The position numbers and the translations under genes were made by a program. This document shows positions 627 through 32,248 of a DNA stretch of 64,000 nucleotides, one piece after another. A model generated the notes under the pieces. It was not told where the DNA came from. It was given only the letters and a program-made list of their open reading frames with translations, and ran no database searches. Within the stretch, counting starts at the first letter, position 1. The number at the start of each line of letters is the position of its first letter. Origin of the DNA: a virus (lineage: Duplodnaviria; Caudoviricetes); the IMG/VR virus record IMGVR_UViG_3300048629_000034, positions 32,001-96,000 of that record; one strand, written 5' to 3'.

Positions 627-935
627 CTACATTTTTTTAGCACAATCCTTGTATGTTTTCCCACTCATTGCTCTACTCATAGTAGAAGTACCAACTCCCA
701 TTTTACTAGCTAAGTCAGATACACTAACACCCATTTTGAATTGATCTCTGCACCATATGATTATCTTGCAGTCCAATTTCTTTTTATTTGTAGTTTTTCT
801 TTTTACAGCTTTGTCTGCATATGTAGCTGTTGGCTTAACAAATTTTGAATCTACCTCAGCATTGAATGGACCACGAATTGATTGTGATATTCTAGCTATA
901 ATGTATTCGTACATGCTTTTTATTGTATCGAACAT
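627..935 (-). CDS. Small helix-turn-helix DNA-binding protein
   Basis: C-terminal GVSVSDLASKMGVGTSTMSRAMSGKTY is HTH-like; AGGAG RBS. Confidence 0.55.
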   Translation of the reverse strand: MFDTIKSMYEYIIARISQSIRGPFNAEVDSKFVKPTATYADKAVKRKTTNKKKLDCKIIIWCRDQFKMGVSVSDLASKMGVGTSTMSRAMSGKTYKDCAKKM

Positions 936-962
936 ATTTTCTCCTTTTTTATTTATTGTATT

Positions 963-1601
963 CTATCTAACTTTTAATAAGTTTTCAAGTCTATTATTCC
1001 ATCCATTCAAATAACTTATGTATTTATCCGGATTGCTCGCTACTAATTTAGCTAATTCTAACTGCATATGACTAATGAAGTATGCCTCGAACAGGTATCC
1101 ATATGTATTATTTATATCAACTGCACCAGCTACATTAGCTAATCCAAGTTCAGTTTTAGAACCATACGCACCATCTACTACTAGTTTTGAACCAATAGTA
1201 AACTCATTGTCTATGAATTTATTTACAGTAGATTGTATTGATTTGATTGTATTCTTTGGACTTAGTGTATATGCAGACATAACTGCAACCACTGATTCTA
1301 CTGGATACATATCGATATGTATATTATAGTAGTACTCGTCATAGAACTCACTAACCAATTCTTTAACTATTTCCACATCTATATTGTTATTTATATCGTC
1401 TATTGTTAGTTGGTTCCATTCGTTTGAGTTTAAGTGGTATCCTAATTCATTTGCAATCTGATCTATGTATTCGAATATCTTGGCTGAACTATGTTGTGTT
1501 CTATATATCCCATATGGAGCTGTGATATCACTCTCAGTTGGTAATCTGTGAACTTTAGTTCCTTCTGCTTTGGCTAAGTGTTCTAGTATTTGTTCTGTCA
1601 T
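963..1601 (-). CDS. Endolysin, GH108/lysozyme-like with C-terminal peptidoglycan-binding motif
   Basis: N-terminal HLAKAEG and TAPYGI, internal LVVDGAYGSKT, C-terminal YLNGWNNRL; next to holin-like genes. Confidence 0.65.
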   Translation of the reverse strand: MTEQILEHLAKAEGTKVHRLPTESDITAPYGIYRTQHSSAKIFEYIDQIANELGYHLNSNEWNQLTIDDINNNIDVEIVKELVSEFYDEYYYNIHIDMYPVESVVAVMSAYTLSPKNTIKSIQSTVNKFIDNEFTIGSKLVVDGAYGSKTELGLANVAGAVDINNTYGYLFEAYFISHMQLELAKLVASNPDKYISYLNGWNNRLENLLKVR

Positions 1602-1617
1602 AGTATTGGTTCTCCTA

Positions 1618-2121
1618 TTATTGTAATATAAACATCTTCACAGCTACAGCTATCATACTTCCGGCAACAGCTCTCCATAGCCATGTAATGTTAGCATTCA
1701 TCTCATCTACTTTATCTGTTAAATGCTTTAGGTCATTTTTACTCACTTGGTCCTCACTGATCGCTAACTTTAATGCACTACATCCCTCTGATGTATTGTC
1801 TTGAGTATATTCAGTAAGCTTAAGTATTTTTCCATGATTATAATCAATTTTATCTTCTAGTGTTTTCATGTCCTTCTTGGCTGATTCACTATGGATCTTG
1901 CATGATGAGCCTTTTTTTATTTCATCGAATCTATAATTTGTCATTTGCATGAAATTTGTAAAATTGCTCAGCGAATCGATAATCTCCTCTAGCTTTCTAT
2001 TGTGACGCTCCTGCTCTTTTGCATTGCTTTCTATTACAACTTCAAGCTTGTTCATCACAACTACAAGCTGTCCAGTAGTATCTTCAAGCTTATCTATTCT
2101 ATTTTCTAATTGTTGGCTCAT
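1618..2121 (-). CDS. Coiled-coil protein with C-terminal TM helix (lysis accessory or holin-like)
   Basis: Heptad-rich body ending WLWRAVAGSMIAVAVKMFILQ; within the lysis cassette. Confidence 0.5.
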   Translation of the reverse strand: MSQQLENRIDKLEDTTGQLVVVMNKLEVVIESNAKEQERHNRKLEEIIDSLSNFTNFMQMTNYRFDEIKKGSSCKIHSESAKKDMKTLEDKIDYNHGKILKLTEYTQDNTSEGCSALKLAISEDQVSKNDLKHLTDKVDEMNANITWLWRAVAGSMIAVAVKMFILQ

Positions 2122-2185
2122 TAATTTATTCCATCTGTGTATATTGATTTTCTTTTATTTTATCGAACCAATACTTATGTCAGAC

Positions 2186-2560
2186 TTATTTCTTTGACTT
2201 CATTTGTTTTATAATTCCTTCAGTAGCTCCAGAACCAAAGTAGAACACAATTATACTTATGAATGCTAACCCTATATTGAAGTGGTCGGCTACTGCATAC
2301 ACATCTGATACATTACCACCATTGTACATTACACCTAGTGATACTAGAACCAATACTATTACTAATCCAGTAATTCCAAATGCTAGTACTCTCTGAGCTA
2401 ATTTAAATGGTTCATAAGCCTTTAGTATCTCAATCTTCATCTTTGATTTACTTAGCTCCATATTTGCTTTCTCTTCATCTGTATATACCATTGCATCTAT
2501 AGCCGATATACCTGCATCTATAACTTTATCGCTTCCGAATATTTTACCTAGTATTCCCAT
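2186..2560 (-). CDS. Holin (3TM-holin-like)
   Basis: Start moved to MGILGKIFGS; xTDEEK motif followed by two TM segments ending FYFG. Confidence 0.6.
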   Translation of the reverse strand: MGILGKIFGSDKVIDAGISAIDAMVYTDEEKANMELSKSKMKIEILKAYEPFKLAQRVLAFGITGLVIVLVLVSLGVMYNGGNVSDVYAVADHFNIGLAFISIIVFYFGSGATEGIIKQMKSKK

Positions 2561-2561
2561 C

Positions 2562-2840
2562 TTATTTACCTTTCTTGATTGGACTTCTATGTACATTAAC
2601 AGTGCGTCTGGCTCTCTTAGTATCTATAGTTGATTGCTTCTTTAACTCAGCTAACAGCTTATCATCGTATGTATTAGTTGACTTCTTAGTTAAGTACTCA
2701 GCTCCATTAACTATAATCTCATGGATATCTTCATCATTCATAAACTCAACTATCTTAGCAATCTTCTTACTTTTGTTAGCTGATCTTTGTATGAACCAAG
2801 CTAATCCTTTAGCTATTAGTTTATATAGTAATTCTTTCAT
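2562..2840 (-). CDS. Hypothetical protein (lysis region)
   Basis: 92-aa ORF packed in the operon; STNTYDDKL motif. Confidence 0.5.
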   Translation of the reverse strand: MKELLYKLIAKGLAWFIQRSANKSKKIAKIVEFMNDEDIHEIIVNGAEYLTKKSTNTYDDKLLAELKKQSTIDTKRARRTVNVHRSPIKKGK

Positions 2841-2915
2841 TCGTCACCCCATTCTTTCATGTTTAGTCCTTTTTTATTAAACTTAACAAAGCCCTCCTAA
2901 GAGGACTCTATAAAT

Positions 2916-3224
2916 TTATTTAGTAGCTAGCTCTTTAGCCATTGCTCTAAATGTTTGATATTCAGAATACTCTTCTGGTTTACTATCCCTATCGTTAGTT
3001 AATGCAATCTCTGCTCCAGCAGTATATTGTGTAGCAATTATAGCTTCAACTATATCACCGTAGCTAGCAGATTTATCTACTTTTACTTCATCACATTCGT
3101 ATGTAGTAATTTCGTTGTTAGTCATTTCGTCTATTTTTGATACTGATTTCATATTGAATCTGTAAACTTTTTTACCTTGTACTTCTTCTGTTTCGTTTGG
3201 CATAACATCGTATTGTGCTTTCAT
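2916..3224 (-). CDS. Small tail-associated hypothetical protein
   Basis: 102 aa, directly after RT; IIATQYTAGAEIAL...EYQTFRAMAK pattern typical of small genes following phage tail fibres; not Avd-like. Confidence 0.5.
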   Translation of the reverse strand: MKAQYDVMPNETEEVQGKKVYRFNMKSVSKIDEMTNNEITTYECDEVKVDKSASYGDIVEAIIATQYTAGAEIALTNDRDSKPEEYSEYQTFRAMAKELATK

Positions 3225-3227
3225 ATT

Positions 3228-4268
3228 TTAATTCCTTATTAATATTTTATTGTTGATTCTTCGATTGGCGAAAATCATTCTTAGTTTGTAGGTAGATATC
3301 GTATTCCATAAATTAAATGAATCTGTAATTATTGACCACCCATTATAGGCTGCAACCTTACCCTTTAGCTGTCTATCTCCAAAATTTTCATGATTATTCG
3401 TAATGTCTCTGAACGTCTTTACCATATTTTTCTTGATTTTGTTTCTTATCATAGTATATTGATGAAAGAATCTGAACCCAAGAAAGTCTACTCCTCGCTT
3501 ATTTACTTGGTATACCTGGTAATTGCCTTTTATTGATAACTTTAATTCTTTATCCAAATACTCCTTTATTGTATTAAATACATCATGAAGATATTCTTTG
3601 TCGTCATGCAATATAACTATATCGTCACAATATCTAAAATAATGCTTTACACCAAGTTTTTCTTTGACCCAATGATCAAAATAAGTTAAGTATAGATTAC
3701 CGAAGTATTGGCTCATATAGTTTCCAATCGGAACACCTTTAGTACTATCTATTATTTCATCAAGCAATGTTAATGTGTCTTTGCATTTAATCTTTTTACG
3801 TATTATTTGTTTTAGTATATCATTGTTTATGCTAGGATAGAATTTTTGCACATCTAGTTGTAAGCAATATACGGGTTTATCTTTTCTGATTATTCGTTCT
3901 ATCTTCTTTTTAGCCTTATGAACACCTCTTCCTCTTATTGATTGGTAGGTGTCAGATATTAGTGTTTTAAACCAGATTGGTTCAAGCACTTGCATTATGG
4001 CATGATGTATAACTCTGTCAGGAAAATATGGTAGTTTATATATTTCTCTTTCTTTACCTTTGTCGTTCTTTATGAATATCTCATATTGACTATTAACAAA
4101 GGTCTTACTTTTAAGCATTTGGTGTATTTTTTCTATGTAGAAGTTTTCGTTTCGGTTGAATCGCATAACTTCTTTATAGTGCTTTTTACCAAGCTGAGCT
4201 CTTTTATGAGCTAATCGTATATTATCTATATTGTATATTTTTTCGTATAAATTATTGTATCTTTTCAT
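3228..4268 (-). CDS. DGR reverse transcriptase
   Basis: Start MKRYNNLYEKI; KxRxI, PDRVIHHA, LDVQKFYPSI, GVPIGNYMSQYFGNLYL (DGR-type SQ), YFRYCDD, GVDFLGF. Confidence 0.95.
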   Translation of the reverse strand: MKRYNNLYEKIYNIDNIRLAHKRAQLGKKHYKEVMRFNRNENFYIEKIHQMLKSKTFVNSQYEIFIKNDKGKEREIYKLPYFPDRVIHHAIMQVLEPIWFKTLISDTYQSIRGRGVHKAKKKIERIIRKDKPVYCLQLDVQKFYPSINNDILKQIIRKKIKCKDTLTLLDEIIDSTKGVPIGNYMSQYFGNLYLTYFDHWVKEKLGVKHYFRYCDDIVILHDDKEYLHDVFNTIKEYLDKELKLSIKGNYQVYQVNKRGVDFLGFRFFHQYTMIRNKIKKNMVKTFRDITNNHENFGDRQLKGKVAAYNGWSIITDSFNLWNTISTYKLRMIFANRRINNKILIRN

Positions 4269-4384
4269 TGTCTTATCACCCCTGAATCTTCCCGTTAGGT
4301 ACCAATACATAATAGAGCATAGCAGTGTGTTTTACCAAGAGGTAAGGGAGCAAATCGTTAAGTATTTGTTGTTTTAATTGATAA

Positions 4385-12149: not shown

Positions 12150-15100
12150 TTAAACATAGCTTGAGAATGCGTTGGTTCTATTTCCTATACTTTTTCTTCT
12201 GTTCGCAAACAGTCTCATGCCTCCAGATGCCTGTGTCCCTACATTATGACCAGCATTTTTTGACATCTCTTGACCTGTCATGCCGCTCATTGGGTAGTTT
12301 ATTTGCATCATAGCTATTTGACTAATCAAATCTGGCCCATCATCATGTCTAGAATTATGAACTATGCATCCGTTAACTACAAAGTTGCTGTAACCAGGAA
12401 CCTCTATATCGTAGACAGGCTCATTCTTTCCTGTGTTTTTTATTTCTTCTATAGAAACTAGATCTGCATTCGACAGAGCAATATTTTTGTCGAATAGTAT
12501 GTCCCATAAATTTTTTTCCACATTCTCTACATTCGCATTCGAATTTAATTGTTTTTCTAGCTTCGTCAATACATATTTTTCCGCAATATTTAGTTTTGTT
12601 TGAAACTGGTGAGACAAATTTCTTTCCGCAATTCTTGCACTCTCTTTCTTCTGACCTAAGTAATCTTTTTTTCTCATTATGTATTTTTGTACATTTTGGA
12701 TTGTTGCATAAAATTTGGTTATGGCTTTGTTGCATAACCTCATTTGAACAGATACTACACTTGATAACTTGAAGCGGTTTATAATCGATATTGAATCTAA
12801 GTTTCTTTGCTTTACTTCGACACGATTCTCCGCAATATTTTGCATCGTTTCTTGAGTTTTTGTGCATAATAAACTCTGTTCCGCACCATTTACATATTCT
12901 GTTGATCTTTCTATTCTGTTGTTTTCTTGCAGATGCTTTTTTTCGGTATGATTTGTCTCTGGCATAGAAATGATCATTTGATCCTTTGTGTATTTTTTGA
13001 TGCTCTTGTCTGGTAAGAATGATGAGATTACATGCTTCATTGTTGTCTTTATTTTCGTCAACATGATGCACATCAAACCCTCGCGGGATTGATGTGCCAG
13101 TTTCTCTTTCAAACACTTCTCTGTGTAACCATTTTCTTTTTCCGTTAATATTTCTTGTGGATTGATAGTATCCGTTTGGTTTTTTTCTCCACTTGAATCC
13201 ATATCTTTCATCTTGCATATACTGTTCCTTATCAATACATCCCAATGCCTCAGATCGTCTACTCTTACATAACCTCTTGCTGTCATAACCCTATGACAAC
13301 CCGTAAGCCTCATAATTAGTCCATCTGCGGTAACTAGTTCATATATCTCTTTATTTCCAGTAAATATAGCATTTTTTGGTTTAACATATGCTGAATACGA
13401 CCCATTTGTTGCTAGTACCATATCCTCATTAGTAATATCAGTTATATACTTTTCTCCGTCAATACACTTAACCAAAGTATCAGCAGAGAAACAACCGAAG
13501 CTGTCGTGTTTTATCATCATCAACTGCTCCATAAGTACTTTCATGTCAGGAATATCCTGAAGCTCTCTCGGAAACCATATCTTTCTGTTCTGGAATAATG
13601 GTAGAGTCATTCTGAACCTCCAGTGCTTATTACCACCTTCCAGTCTACTTGTTATCCCCTCAGAGCCAGCTTTACTACCTTTGGCTCTAGCGAATGTGAA
13701 GAATATACCTTTTCTAGGCATTCTCTCTCTAACTGCTTCTAGGTGAGCTCTTTGGTTCCCATCTAATTCTATACCAACTTCTATGTATCTAGCACCAAGT
13801 GAAGTATATAGTTGCGCAAACCTAAATAACTCATCGTATTGATCTTCTATTGTACATTTTCTAAGCGACAAATCCAACATAAAGTGATCCATATTACTAT
13901 TTACAGCCCACACAGCTATACCACTATAATCACCATTTAGATCATTACTTGAAGTAAAATCTGTTGTGATATATATATTGTAATCACTCATTCTTTTTTG
14001 GATATCTACTCTATTGAACCATTGTATGTAGTTCTGCTGTAGCATTTTATCTTCAGATGTACTTGTTCGCAGATAATGCTCTTGCATTAGTTTCTTCATT
14101 GGTTCTGGATTTCCTGCATCTTTGGCTCTTTGTGCTCTTCGATAATCCCTCATACAGTTCGAGAAGCTATGTCTGTCTGGCCATACTGATACAAATTCAT
14201 CCTCTACCATATCTTCTCTTATTGATTCACCTCTAGGGAACACAACTGGAAGCCAAGTACCTTCTTCAATTCTTCTTGTAACGCTATCATTCTTTCCATA
14301 TGGAGTACCAATTATTACTGCGAAGTTTTTATTATTATTTAAACCAGGAAGCACATCGGCTTCAATAGTACTTTCTATGCTTGTCATTATTGATTTACTT
14401 GCTGCAGCCTTCTCGCCCTTTATCAAATCGTCAAATATTGAGGCATCCGGCCTAGCTAGTCCTGACCTAGTTCCTCTAACCCCAGCTTCAGCTCCAACGC
14501 CACCCAATGTGAATGTTCTAAGCATTCTGCCTGGAACAGTATCTTCTGACTTTCCTTGTTTTATTACATGGTCTTCATATGCTCGTAATTCTGACTTTGT
14601 TATTGGCTTTCTAACAAACAATACTTCATTTACATTTAGTTTCCATGACTCGAAGAATTGTTGCATATATGGACTCTCTAGGAATACTTGCTTAATCATC
14701 CCCATTGTGGTTTTTACATTATTCTCCATTGTGTCCCCTACATATAGCATGTAGTTTATTTTTCCGAAACCTGGAAGTTTCCCTTTAATTGCTGCGAACA
14801 TAAATAAATATGTTACAATACTGCTCTTGCTAAATTCCCTGCAAGACAATATTGCTATTCTGTCATTCATTCCAAAGTAATCAATATTACGAACCATAAA
14901 GAATGGCTGAACATTTGGTTGTCTGAATATACAATCAACGAAGAAGTAATGTGGCAAACTATTGCTGTTCTCTGGTTCTCTACCTAGTGCCATACGAATG
15001 AATGCCATAAACTCTATGGCATGGTCACTTGGGATATACCATTTTAACTTTAGATCTATATTATCTAACAACTTATCCATAGTTATTATCTTATCTTCGA

Positions 15101-15212
15101 ATGCTTTCAATACTATTCCATCAGAACCAACCTCCCACTTGTGATGAGGGTCGACTCCATCTGGATATATTGCAGCTACACTATTTGGTAGCTTATCTGC
15201 TGGTATAAGCAT
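12150..15212 (-). CDS. terL: Terminase large subunit, N4 gp68-like, intein-containing (about 640 aa after splicing)
   Basis: YIPSDHAIEFMAFI, Walker A SCREFSKSS, GVRG, Walker B IFDD, IGTP, nuclease YITTDF and C-terminal HDD. Confidence 0.9.
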   Translation of the reverse strand: MLIPADKLPNSVAAIYPDGVDPHHKWEVGSDGIVLKAFEDKIITMDKLLDNIDLKLKWYIPSDHAIEFMAFIRMALGREPENSNSLPHYFFVDCIFRQPNVQPFFMVRNIDYFGMNDRIAILSCREFSKSSIVTYLFMFAAIKGKLPGFGKINYMLYVGDTMENNVKTTMGMIKQVFLESPYMQQFFESWKLNVNEVLFVRKPITKSELRAYEDHVIKQGKSEDTVPGRMLRTFTLGGVGAEAGVRGTRSGLARPDASIFDDLIKGEKAAASKSIMTSIESTIEADVLPGLNNNKNFAVIIGTPYGKNDSVTRRIEEGTWLPVVFPRGESIREDMVEDEFVSVWPDRHSFSNCMRDYRRAQRAKDAGNPEPMKKLMQEHYLRTSTSEDKMLQQNYIQWFNRVDIQKRMSDYNIYITTDFTSSNDLNGDYSGIAVWAVNSNMDHFMLDLSLRKCTIEDQYDELFRFAQLYTSLGARYIEVGIELDGNQRAHLEAVRERMPRKGIFFTFARAKGSKAGSEGITSRLEGGNKHWRFRMTLPLFQNRKIWFPRELQDIPDMKVLMEQLMMIKHDSFGCFSADTLVKCIDGEKYITDITNEDMVLATNGSYSAYVKPKNAIFTGNKEIYELVTADGLIMRLTGCHRVMTARGYVRVDDLRHWDVLIRNSICKMKDMDSSGEKNQTDTINPQEILTEKENGYTEKCLKEKLAHQSREGLMCIMLTKIKTTMKHVISSFLPDKSIKKYTKDQMIISMPETNHTEKKHLQENNRIERSTEYVNGAEQSLLCTKTQETMQNIAENRVEVKQRNLDSISIINRFKLSSVVSVQMRLCNKAITKFYATIQNVQKYIMRKKDYLGQKKESARIAERNLSHQFQTKLNIAEKYVLTKLEKQLNSNANVENVEKNLWDILFDKNIALSNADLVSIEEIKNTGKNEPVYDIEVPGYSNFVVNGCIVHNSRHDDGPDLISQIAMMQINYPMSGMTGQEMSKNAGHNVGTQASGGMRLFANRRKSIGNRTNAFSSYV
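12354..13493 (-). mobile_element. Intein (380 aa) in terL
   Basis: Starts CFSADTLV; block B LRLTGCH-type (MRLTGCHRV); block F/G VYDIEVPGYSNFVVNGCIVHN followed by Ser; inserted just before the catalytic HDD. Confidence 0.92.
12421..13218 (-). CDS. HNH homing endonuclease with four Zn-finger repeats, nested out of frame inside the intein
   Basis: LHREVF...VHHVDENKDNNEACNL...EHQKIH then four CxxC...[Y/L]C repeats; own AAGGA RBS 7 nt before the ATG at 13218. Confidence 0.88.
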   Translation of the reverse strand: MQDERYGFKWRKKPNGYYQSTRNINGKRKWLHREVFERETGTSIPRGFDVHHVDENKDNNEACNLIILTRQEHQKIHKGSNDHFYARDKSYRKKASARKQQNRKINRICKWCGTEFIMHKNSRNDAKYCGESCRSKAKKLRFNIDYKPLQVIKCSICSNEVMQQSHNQILCNNPKCTKIHNEKKRLLRSEERECKNCGKKFVSPVSNKTKYCGKICIDEARKTIKFECECRECGKKFMGHTIRQKYCSVECRSSFYRRNKKHRKE

Positions 15213-31636: not shown

Positions 31637-32248
31637 ATGGAAAAAATAAGTTTAACGAGATTACTAGCAAAAATTAAAATGTATAATAAACGATTAGCTA
31701 AGGTACAATTTTCTCCAGCTTTGCTGGCTAAAGGAAATAAAGAATTAGTAGAATTATCAAAAGAAAATGAGACATGTTTAGATGAATTGACTTCATACAC
31801 CTCTATTTATGATAACACCAACAATTTAAAAATTGTATTGAATGATGCAAATAATACAACTAAATTTGATGCAGGTCCACTTGGAAAAATTAGTATTGCA
31901 CAAGCGATTATTATTAAAAATAATGTTGATAAATTAGTAATTATTAATAACCAATTAAAAGGTGAGTTAGCAACAGCTCAATATCACAGGGACGAACATA
32001 ATGAGAATTTAAATGCTAAAATTGAAAGATTAATGTCTTCGAAAGCATCATCTGGATCAAATGATAAAAAGTTTATTTCAGAAATTACTAATAGTTTAAA
32101 TAGTATTGAAAAAGCTGCTATTGTAAATGAAGACAAAATTAAAGAAAAAATTGAAGAATTACAAAAAGATATTGATTTTATTAAGGATGAACTAGATATG
32201 TATTTATCTGAAGTTAATGCAAGTACTTTTGTTGAAGTTGAATCATGA
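31637..32248 (+). CDS. Long coiled-coil protein
   Basis: MEKISLTRLLAKIK...ISIAQAI...LSEVNASTFVEV; helical hairpin pattern; directly after the candidate RNA. Confidence 0.7.
   Translation: MEKISLTRLLAKIKMYNKRLAKVQFSPALLAKGNKELVELSKENETCLDELTSYTSIYDNTNNLKIVLNDANNTTKFDAGPLGKISIAQAIIIKNNVDKLVIINNQLKGELATAQYHRDEHNENLNAKIERLMSSKASSGSNDKKFISEITNSLNSIEKAAIVNEDKIKEKIEELQKDIDFIKDELDMYLSEVNASTFVEVES

Follow-up and report, generated by a model that had tools for sequence, protein, structure and literature searches.

An intein in a phage terminase gene probably carries its HNH endonuclease as a separate gene in a second reading frame

Why would an intein keep a long open middle part that resembles no endonuclease, when the same strand encodes one there in a shifted frame? 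The question is raised by the terminase large subunit gene (terL) in the window, our name for the whole 64,000-nucleotide stretch of DNA analysed here (positions 32,001 to 96,000 of IMG/VR record IMGVR_UViG_3300048629_000034), which belongs to a ~113-kb uncultured phage (Duplodnaviria; Caudoviricetes). A first-pass annotation made from the letters alone had proposed that the endonuclease of the terL intein is an independent gene nested out of frame, that the intein frame across it is non-functional read-through, and that a free-standing HNH gene had invaded a mini-intein. Our analysis supports the first two proposals: with a probability of roughly 80%, we conclude that terL holds a mobile composite made of a class-1 HINT intein and a complete HNH gene lying in the -1 frame between the splicing lobes. 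All coordinates below are window positions, and all features are on the minus strand.

The TerL precursor (N-extein, intein and C-extein in one frame) is encoded by a single open reading frame (ORF) of 1020 codons (12150-15212). Residues 104-567 match the terminase large subunit family phrog_38 in a PHROG profile search (E = 6.8e-38), and residues 589-953 match the Pfam family Intein_splicing (PF14890; 60.2 bits, cutoff 35.8). The borders first proposed for the intein, 380 open codons at 12354-13493, proved exact when read against the sequence: it begins with Cys1 (TGT, 13493-13491), ends with Asn380 (AAT, 12356-12354), and contains block B (T64-G-C-H67), block F (VYDIEV) and block G (...CIVHN, with H379-N380), followed by Ser+1. 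The N-extein (573 amino acids, 13494-15212), delimited by sequence and by comparison with intein-less homologues, ends in ...MIKHDSFG, and the C-extein (67 amino acids plus the stop codon, 12150-12353) starts with SRHDDGPDLISQ, a conserved motif of the TerL nuclease domain, such that the flanks read ...KHDSFG before the intein and SRHDDGPDL... after it. Subtraction of 380 codons from 1020 leaves a mature TerL of 640 amino acids. Intein-less homologues are 634-642 amino acids long, are up to 58% identical, and read ...FG↓S(A/R/G)HDDG... across the junction (arrow, insertion point), for example ...AFG↓SAHDDG. Together, the size and the homologue junction indicate that the element was inserted precisely relative to intein-less alleles.

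Both ends of the intein are predicted to fold as expected. The beta-rich N-terminal HINT lobe (residues 1-91, 13221-13493) and the C-terminal HINT lobe (residues 341-380, 12354-12473), which contains blocks F and G and aligns with the C-intein pieces of the fractured relatives described below, matched Ssp and Npu DnaB and RecA mini-inteins in Foldseek comparisons (E = 2.5e-6 to 1e-4, TM(target) 0.5-0.58, TM being the template modelling score), the best DnaB mini-intein matches of the N-terminal lobe having E values of 2.5e-6 to 9e-6. By its catalytic residues, its match to PF14890, the fold of its lobes and its precise insertion, the element is a standard class-1 HINT intein, and its intact catalytic residues, in a TerL that is essential, imply that it would splice. 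A group I intron was also considered and rejected on account of the HINT motifs and the uninterrupted frame.

The in-frame middle of the intein, in which the first-pass annotation had recognised no motif, indeed matched nothing in Pfam or PHROG profile searches. Between block B and block F, the -1 (+2) frame of TerL contains an ORF of 265 codons plus a TGA stop (12421-13218) that reads as an HNH homing-endonuclease gene. Its ATG (13218-13216) lies 275 nucleotides (nt) past the intein start (275 mod 3 = 2, hence the -1/+2 frame), its TGA is at 12423-12421, and its final ~15 codons extend over the DNA that encodes, in the intein frame, the start of the C-terminal HINT lobe (its first strand). 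A Shine-Dalgarno (SD) sequence, AAGGA (13226-13230), stands 7 nt before the ATG. The translated ORF matches Pfam HNH_3 (PF13392; 45.2 bits, cutoff 24.8, E = 7e-12) and the HNH family phrog_15471 (E = 1.6e-28); its nuclease family is HNH_3, not Endonuclease_7. Residues 51-77 (12988-13068) hold the catalytic beta-beta-alpha-metal motif (HH...NN...N...H...H), located by the Pfam match and alignment. Residues 109-251 (12466-12894) form four zinc-ribbons of the pattern CxxC-x(13-16)-C-x(3-4)-C (C109/112/129/133, C154/157/171/176, C194/197/212/216 and C230/233/247/251), recognisable from the sequence, from conserved cysteine columns and from confident strand-strand-helix repeats in the structural model, and presumed to be a DNA-binding module. 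All the parts that the first-pass annotation had listed for this gene, including its own SD and stop and its position between the splicing blocks, were thus confirmed.

A full scan of 1.84 billion representative sequences found 4493 relatives of this HNH protein, the best of which (P0125) is 44% identical over its full length; no entry among the 1.84 billion is identical to it, indicating that gene callers have not called the ORF. The window protein keeps all 12 columns that are invariant in an alignment of 25 homologues, including H52, N60, N64, H73, H77, C109, C112, C129 and C133. AlphaFold2, run on this alignment, returned a model with a mean predicted local distance difference test score (pLDDT) of 91. 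A PDB search by sequence gave no match; by fold, the top PDB match of the model was I-HmuI (1U3E), a weak one (E = 6e-3), followed by multi-zinc-finger DNA binders. By family, motif and fold, the nested ORF is predicted to encode an I-HmuI-like HNH homing endonuclease. SD-like sequences also occur 5-9 nt upstream of the HNH start in six related loci (L013, L002, L017, L018, L001 and L004). When the RNA surrounding the HNH start was folded for five loci, no structure exceeded that of shuffled controls (z from -1.7 to +1.5), leaving regulated occlusion of the ribosome-binding site unsupported.

If the intein frame is translated through the HNH gene, stop codons in it should be selected against. 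The HNH gene spans 798 nt at 33% GC and is stop-free in two frames, as first noticed, with 28 stops in the third. When the HNH protein was re-encoded with phage codon usage, 9.2-9.5 stops were expected in the intein frame (standard deviation 2.1), yet none is observed, and none of 20000 resamples reached zero (0/20000); shuffling of codon order gave a similar result. These data indicate that stops have been purged specifically from the intein frame.

We then compared substitution in the two frames using the aligned codons of the window, L013 (a relative with the same TerL family and site) and L001 (Vibrio phage 1.238.A). Synonymous rates (dS) are saturated at such distances, and we therefore report the proportions of nonsynonymous and synonymous differences (pN and pS) and not dN/dS. 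In the HNH frame, pN was 0.40-0.42 and pS 0.77-0.93 (saturated), with amino-acid identity of 40-42%; in the intein frame, pN was 0.48-0.53 and pS 0.46-0.48, with amino-acid identity of 17-24%. Purifying selection acts on the HNH frame and not on the intein-frame linker, which is conserved only in being open. The read-through of the HNH gene in the intein frame (residues 92-340, 12474-13220) has no family match, and the AlphaFold2 model of the in-frame intein has pLDDT values of 80-90 at residues ~1-90 and 72-88 at residues 341-380 but 26-49 at residues ~92-342, a fold result that is weak taken alone, with only 2 aligned sequences for the linker region versus 25 for the HNH protein, and that agrees with the substitution pattern. 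An in-frame insert with a fold of its own would have contradicted the proposal of a meaningless linker; what we found was pLDDT below 50.

The read-through peptide (12474-13220) is more hydrophilic than a synonymous null (Kyte-Doolittle -0.75 versus -0.26, z = -3.6). The same shift was found in Acinetobacter phage Highwayman (z = -3.4); it was not significant in L013 (z = -1.2), and the fractured locus L004 had no shift. These values are at most suggestive of possible selection for a soluble linker.

The arrangement is not peculiar to the window. Eight further lineages have the same nested layout: L013, Highwayman (L002), TJE1, phiCDHM19, LS06-2018-MD07, L022, L027 and L030-32. The closest in context is P0042 on JGI contig Ga0256829_1008278 (locus L013), which has the same TerL family and site, with TerL 54% and HNH 36-37% identical to those of the window; its HNH gene is in the +2 frame behind a GGAG SD, and its intein frame has 0 stops versus 8.9 expected. 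An empty site is known for this lineage too, as the TerL of L012 lacks the intein and is 84% identical to the occupied L013 TerL. Other terminase families contain the contiguous form in Highwayman, Tetrasphaera phage TJE1 and Rhodobacteraceae phage LS06-2018-MD07 (HNH at +2, 0 stops), in Clostridioides difficile phage phiCDHM19 (HNH at +2, 0 stops versus 10.4 expected), and in the IMG/VR loci L022, L027 and L030-32 (HNH at +2, 0 terL-frame stops). The nested HNH gene is unannotated in the GenBank records of Highwayman, TJE1, phiCDHM19 and LS06-2018-MD07. Intein-frame stops number 0 in 9/9 contiguous lineages examined (null means of 5.8-10.4 in the AT-rich ones), and the third frame has 9-49 stops in every locus. 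One of these loci, L027 (IMGVR_UViG_3300000234_000005, 754-4311), encodes an N4-type TerL of 1186 amino acids with two inteins. The first, close to the N-terminus, is of the LAGLIDADG type and in frame; the second (...KHDD↓C...VVHN↓CIDT) is contiguous and holds the nested HNH. What is contiguous in L027 is fractured in Vibrio phage 1.238.A, at almost the same position.

In all nine contiguous lineages, the relative frame is the same (intein frame = HNH frame + 1, that is, HNH at +2). The expected stop load of the +1 frame of the HNH gene is 3-5-fold below that of the +2 frame in every family member (9 versus 43 in the window), and all +1-frame stops are removable by synonymous change, the exceptions being Met-Ile, Met-Met, Met-Thr, Met-Asn and Met-Lys, dipeptides absent from the contiguous forms. 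The low stop load may channel independent events into one frame, or, alternatively, the frame may simply have been inherited.

Two further states of the same genes were found. In fractured siblings (Vibrio phages 1.238.A/B and 1.245.O; L004-6; L010), the terL frame has 10-14 stops across the HNH gene, and the N- and C-parts of terL are separate ORFs in mutual frame, with HNH at +2. In L033 (IMGVR_UViG_3300003155_000091, 1979-4248), the pieces of the fractured terL are in different frames, with 3 stops in the former read-through frame. Thus 3/4 fractured lineages keep both terL pieces in one frame, which suggests, from sequence comparison, that they descend from contiguous forms. The ORF of the C-piece of L033 extends, still open, over 430 nt of the HNH gene, and the locus may represent an intermediate that broke only recently, although, being GC-rich, it would be expected to have few stops anyway. 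The free-standing siblings (L003, L007, L008/9 and Acinetobacter phage BP10) adjoin the terminase genes (terS/terL) or sit between terL and the portal gene, and have 8-12 stops in the +1 frame. The free HNH of BP10 is 51% identical to the nested HNH of Highwayman, and the TerL of BP10 has no intein.

Vibrio phage 1.238.A (L001, NC_055735, 739-4467) is a cultured Schitoviridae phage whose terL has two inteins, the first in-frame, LAGLIDADG-like and near the N-terminus, and the second fractured: the N-part of terL ends at 3615, an unannotated HNH ORF occupies 3501-4211, and the C-intein with the C-extein is annotated only as a "hedgehog/hint domain protein". As this phage is viable, its intein halves must trans-splice. 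BP10 (L015, OP585104), with its free-standing HNH gene upstream of terS (2477-3118), and Highwayman, with the nested one (3471-4118), are both members of Obolenskvirus and form a natural pair for a homing cross.

The insertion sites all lie within a few codons of the TerL H-D-D/D-x-x-D-A nuclease motif, at three slightly different positions, and the site used in the window is occupied in 2 of ~120 TerL clusters, those of the window and of P0042/L013. A tree of the HNH proteins has two well-supported clades (100/99), in each of which nested, fractured and free states are interleaved; free BP10, for instance, groups with nested Highwayman inside the clade that includes nested TJE1. Inteins were also seen at two or more other sites of TerL homologues (P0030, P0032, P0048, P0063, P0114, P0119 and P0120), for example at GIGA↓...HN↓TGGRGSR and after the Walker-A region, and P0063 (1368 amino acids) seems to hold two. 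Precomputed Pfam annotation assigns LAGLIDADG (PF14528) to P0030, P0048 and P0063 only, and P0032, P0114, P0119 and P0120 have no Pfam annotation. By the inteins read from these sequences, terL in the TerL family of the window is an intein hot spot. Three other searches added little: whole terL had no megablast match in the phage collection, a search of viral contigs for related loci with the N-extein found nothing, and a word-index search with the intein region alone gave 4 weak matches and missed P0042.

These observations fit a scheme in which two populations of ribosomes use one mRNA. Ribosomes translating TerL would read the HNH gene in the wrong frame, producing a hydrophilic, unstructured linker of ~250 residues; the HINT lobes would then associate, and the intein with its linker would be spliced out in cis to give TerL of 640 amino acids. 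Other ribosomes would initiate at the internal AAGGA/ATG on terL mRNA and make the 265-residue HNH enzyme. In a mixed infection, the enzyme would cut or nick an intein-less terL near FG↓S-x-HDD, and recombinational repair would copy the intein and the HNH gene into the cut allele (homing). We infer splicing, separate translation, cleavage specificity and homing from the sequences. Intact catalytic residues, selection confined to the HNH frame, purged stops, the lack of a confident linker fold and replication of the layout in eight lineages carry the proposal of a separate endonuclease gene over a non-functional read-through linker. Site-specific cleavage and gene conversion draw on two observations only, the patchy distribution among TerL homologues and the changes of state on the HNH tree.

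Several points weigh against this interpretation. Splicing, expression and cleavage are read from sequence in every member of the family. The closest HNH relatives are 36-44% identical and dS is saturated, such that recent inactivation of the window copy would not show. The structures of the two frames were compared unevenly, on 25 sequences for the HNH frame and 2 for the linker. Indel errors were judged from the assembled sequence. Finally, the scheme does not account for the first opening of a frame with ~9 expected stops.

The alternative that survives best, although we consider it unlikely, is that the element is a relic, in effect an immobile mini-intein, now fixed in the lineage, with a long stretch of junk as its linker and an HNH gene that was recently inactivated or is unexpressed. 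Only one other TerL cluster of ~120 has an intein at the window site, the 44% identity of the closest HNH relative would hide recent decay from pN/pS, and expression of the gene is itself deduced from sequence. A relic would not be expected, however, to retain a full-length ORF with every family-invariant residue and zinc ligand, a canonical SD at the right spacing, a model with pLDDT of 91 and purifying selection across three lineages; an unused ORF of 265 codons at 33% GC would soon gain stops, as the third frame, with 28, illustrates.

In HK97-like cos phages, HNH proteins act with terminase as packaging accessory nucleases, and the nested HNH could be a domesticated helper of this kind, as the position of free-standing relatives directly beside terS/terL or between terL and the portal gene might suggest. 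We give this explanation little credence. By fold and family, the protein belongs with I-HmuI-type homing enzymes whose DNA-binding tail is a modular set of zinc-ribbons. The closest TerL homologues have neither intein nor HNH, indicating that the HNH is dispensable, and a selfish element would be expected to show the patchy distribution seen here and to sit, as this one does, in an intein at a conserved motif.

Synthesis of the HNH by -1 frameshifting, which would yield a fusion of N-extein, N-intein and HNH, is very improbable, even though, 33 nt inside the HNH ORF and in register with TerL, an A7 run forms a canonical X_XXY_YYZ heptamer (A_AAA_AAC, ~13180-13186), from which slippage would lead into the HNH frame. 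Neither L013 nor L002 has this heptamer at the corresponding place, and similar ones are scattered through the gene by composition; the SD and the start codon are conserved instead. Folding revealed no significant RNA structure around the HNH start (the stretch downstream of the heptamer lay outside the folded region), and a fusion without the C-intein would be a dead end.

Least probable of all is that two compensating indel errors, for which an A7 run 32 nt after the HNH ATG and an A6 run 20 nt before the TGA would offer sites, disguise an ordinary intein whose HNH domain is in frame, a kind known from the literature, as A runs occur throughout this Lys-rich gene at positions that are not special, the HNH ORF has its own SD and ATG, the other frame would contain ~9 stops instead of 0 if only the HNH frame were translated, and the two-frame layout recurs in eight further independent assemblies, cultured phages included.

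How did a composite of intein and nested HNH gene arise? Invasion of a mini-intein by a free-standing HNH, as first proposed, is plausible because free-standing relatives adjoin terminase genes and one of them is 51% identical to a nested copy. The HNH tree, with its interleaving of nested, fractured and free states, is compatible with either direction of change. A broader possibility, which we hold tentatively and at somewhat less than even odds, is that the contiguous dual-coding form is the hub of a large, ancient terL intein/HNH family, from which fractured genes would arise by decay of the read-through and free HNH genes by escape, with the invariant frame due to its lower stop load. Hints in this direction are the frame shared by 9/9 contiguous lineages, the single frame kept in 3/4 fractured ones, the fresh-looking break in L033 and the interleaved HNH tree. 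If true, a hub of this kind would reverse, for this terL family, the usual order in which invasion by a homing endonuclease gene (HEG) fractures the host gene, and would provide a natural series for studying the birth of split inteins.

Whatever its origin, the locus would be a clear and statistically strong case of natural dual coding over ~800 nt under two selective forces, one frame being kept for an enzyme and the other only open and possibly soluble, and its intein would tolerate a meaningless linker of ~250 residues between its lobes. Gene callers miss the nested HNH gene, and the label "hint domain protein" given to fractured relatives is wrong. The free-standing, nested and fractured siblings form a comparative series for the acquisition of endonucleases by inteins and for the origin of split inteins, and the HINT lobes could serve protein engineering as intein pairs for splicing in cis and in trans.

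The nested out-of-frame architecture has already been described once in directly comparable form. In that study of actinophages (Gosselin, Arsenault & Gogarten, bioRxiv 10.1101/2025.01.02.630785), inteins, including TerL inteins, were found to hold an ORF resembling endonuclease VII "in frame 3 relative to the intein", and antisense LAGLIDADG and Vsr-like cases were described as well; the authors found no structure in the in-frame region and proposed invasion by a free-standing HEG. The impression of the first-pass annotation that out-of-frame cases are rarely noted therefore holds for the literature consulted, in which this 2025 preprint is the one direct case, but not for sequence data, in which the layout is common. 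Like the actinophage inteins, the window element has a same-strand nuclease ORF between the splicing lobes, at +2 (their frame 3), an open intein/extein frame, a structureless in-frame insert, TerL among the hosts and free-standing relatives. The same-strand nuclease of the actinophage inteins is endonuclease VII-like (IPR004211), whereas that of the window is an I-HmuI-like HNH_3 protein (PF13392) with four zinc-ribbons, and the hosts found here (the uncultured window phage and phages of Acinetobacter, Clostridioides and Rhodobacteraceae) lie outside the SEA-PHAGES actinophage set. tblastn searches with the window and Highwayman HNH proteins retrieved no mycobacteriophage-type members and none of the actinophage clusters of that preprint. 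The window element thus repeats the published architecture, but its nuclease belongs to another His-Me subfamily and its phage to another group. To the preprint our analysis adds canonical SD sites, the fractured sibling loci, a statistic on purged stops and pN/pS measured for each of the two frames.

Other known systems share some of these properties. In the fractured genes of Dassa et al. 2009 (PMC2677866), an endonuclease gene, GIY-YIG or Vsr-like (an HNH version was only predicted), likewise separates the two intein halves of an essential phage gene (terminase is one such gene), and its ends overlap the pieces on either side. Among relatives of the window element, L001 (Vibrio phage 1.238.A), L004-6, L010 and L033 are built in exactly this way; in the window itself, by contrast, terL is one unbroken ORF of 1020 codons, and splicing in cis would be expected. 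The ShiLan element (Arsenault et al. 2025, PMC11855218), an out-of-frame HNH in a mycobacteriophage DNA methylase gene, resembles the window in that the HNH is overprinted in an insertion that is stop-free in the host-gene frame, but it has no intein splicing domain and no detectable ribosome-binding site, whereas the window insertion is a bona fide intein and its HNH gene has a canonical SD. Finally, the window enzyme shares its catalytic family, and presumed homing into a conserved motif of an essential phage gene, with canonical HNH inteins and I-HmuI-type HNH enzymes, yet it is neither an in-frame intein domain nor intron-encoded, being instead an independent cistron that overlaps the intein. 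Measured against these systems, the window element widens the breadth of a known principle and introduces no new one, its useful additions being the sibling states and the frame rule.

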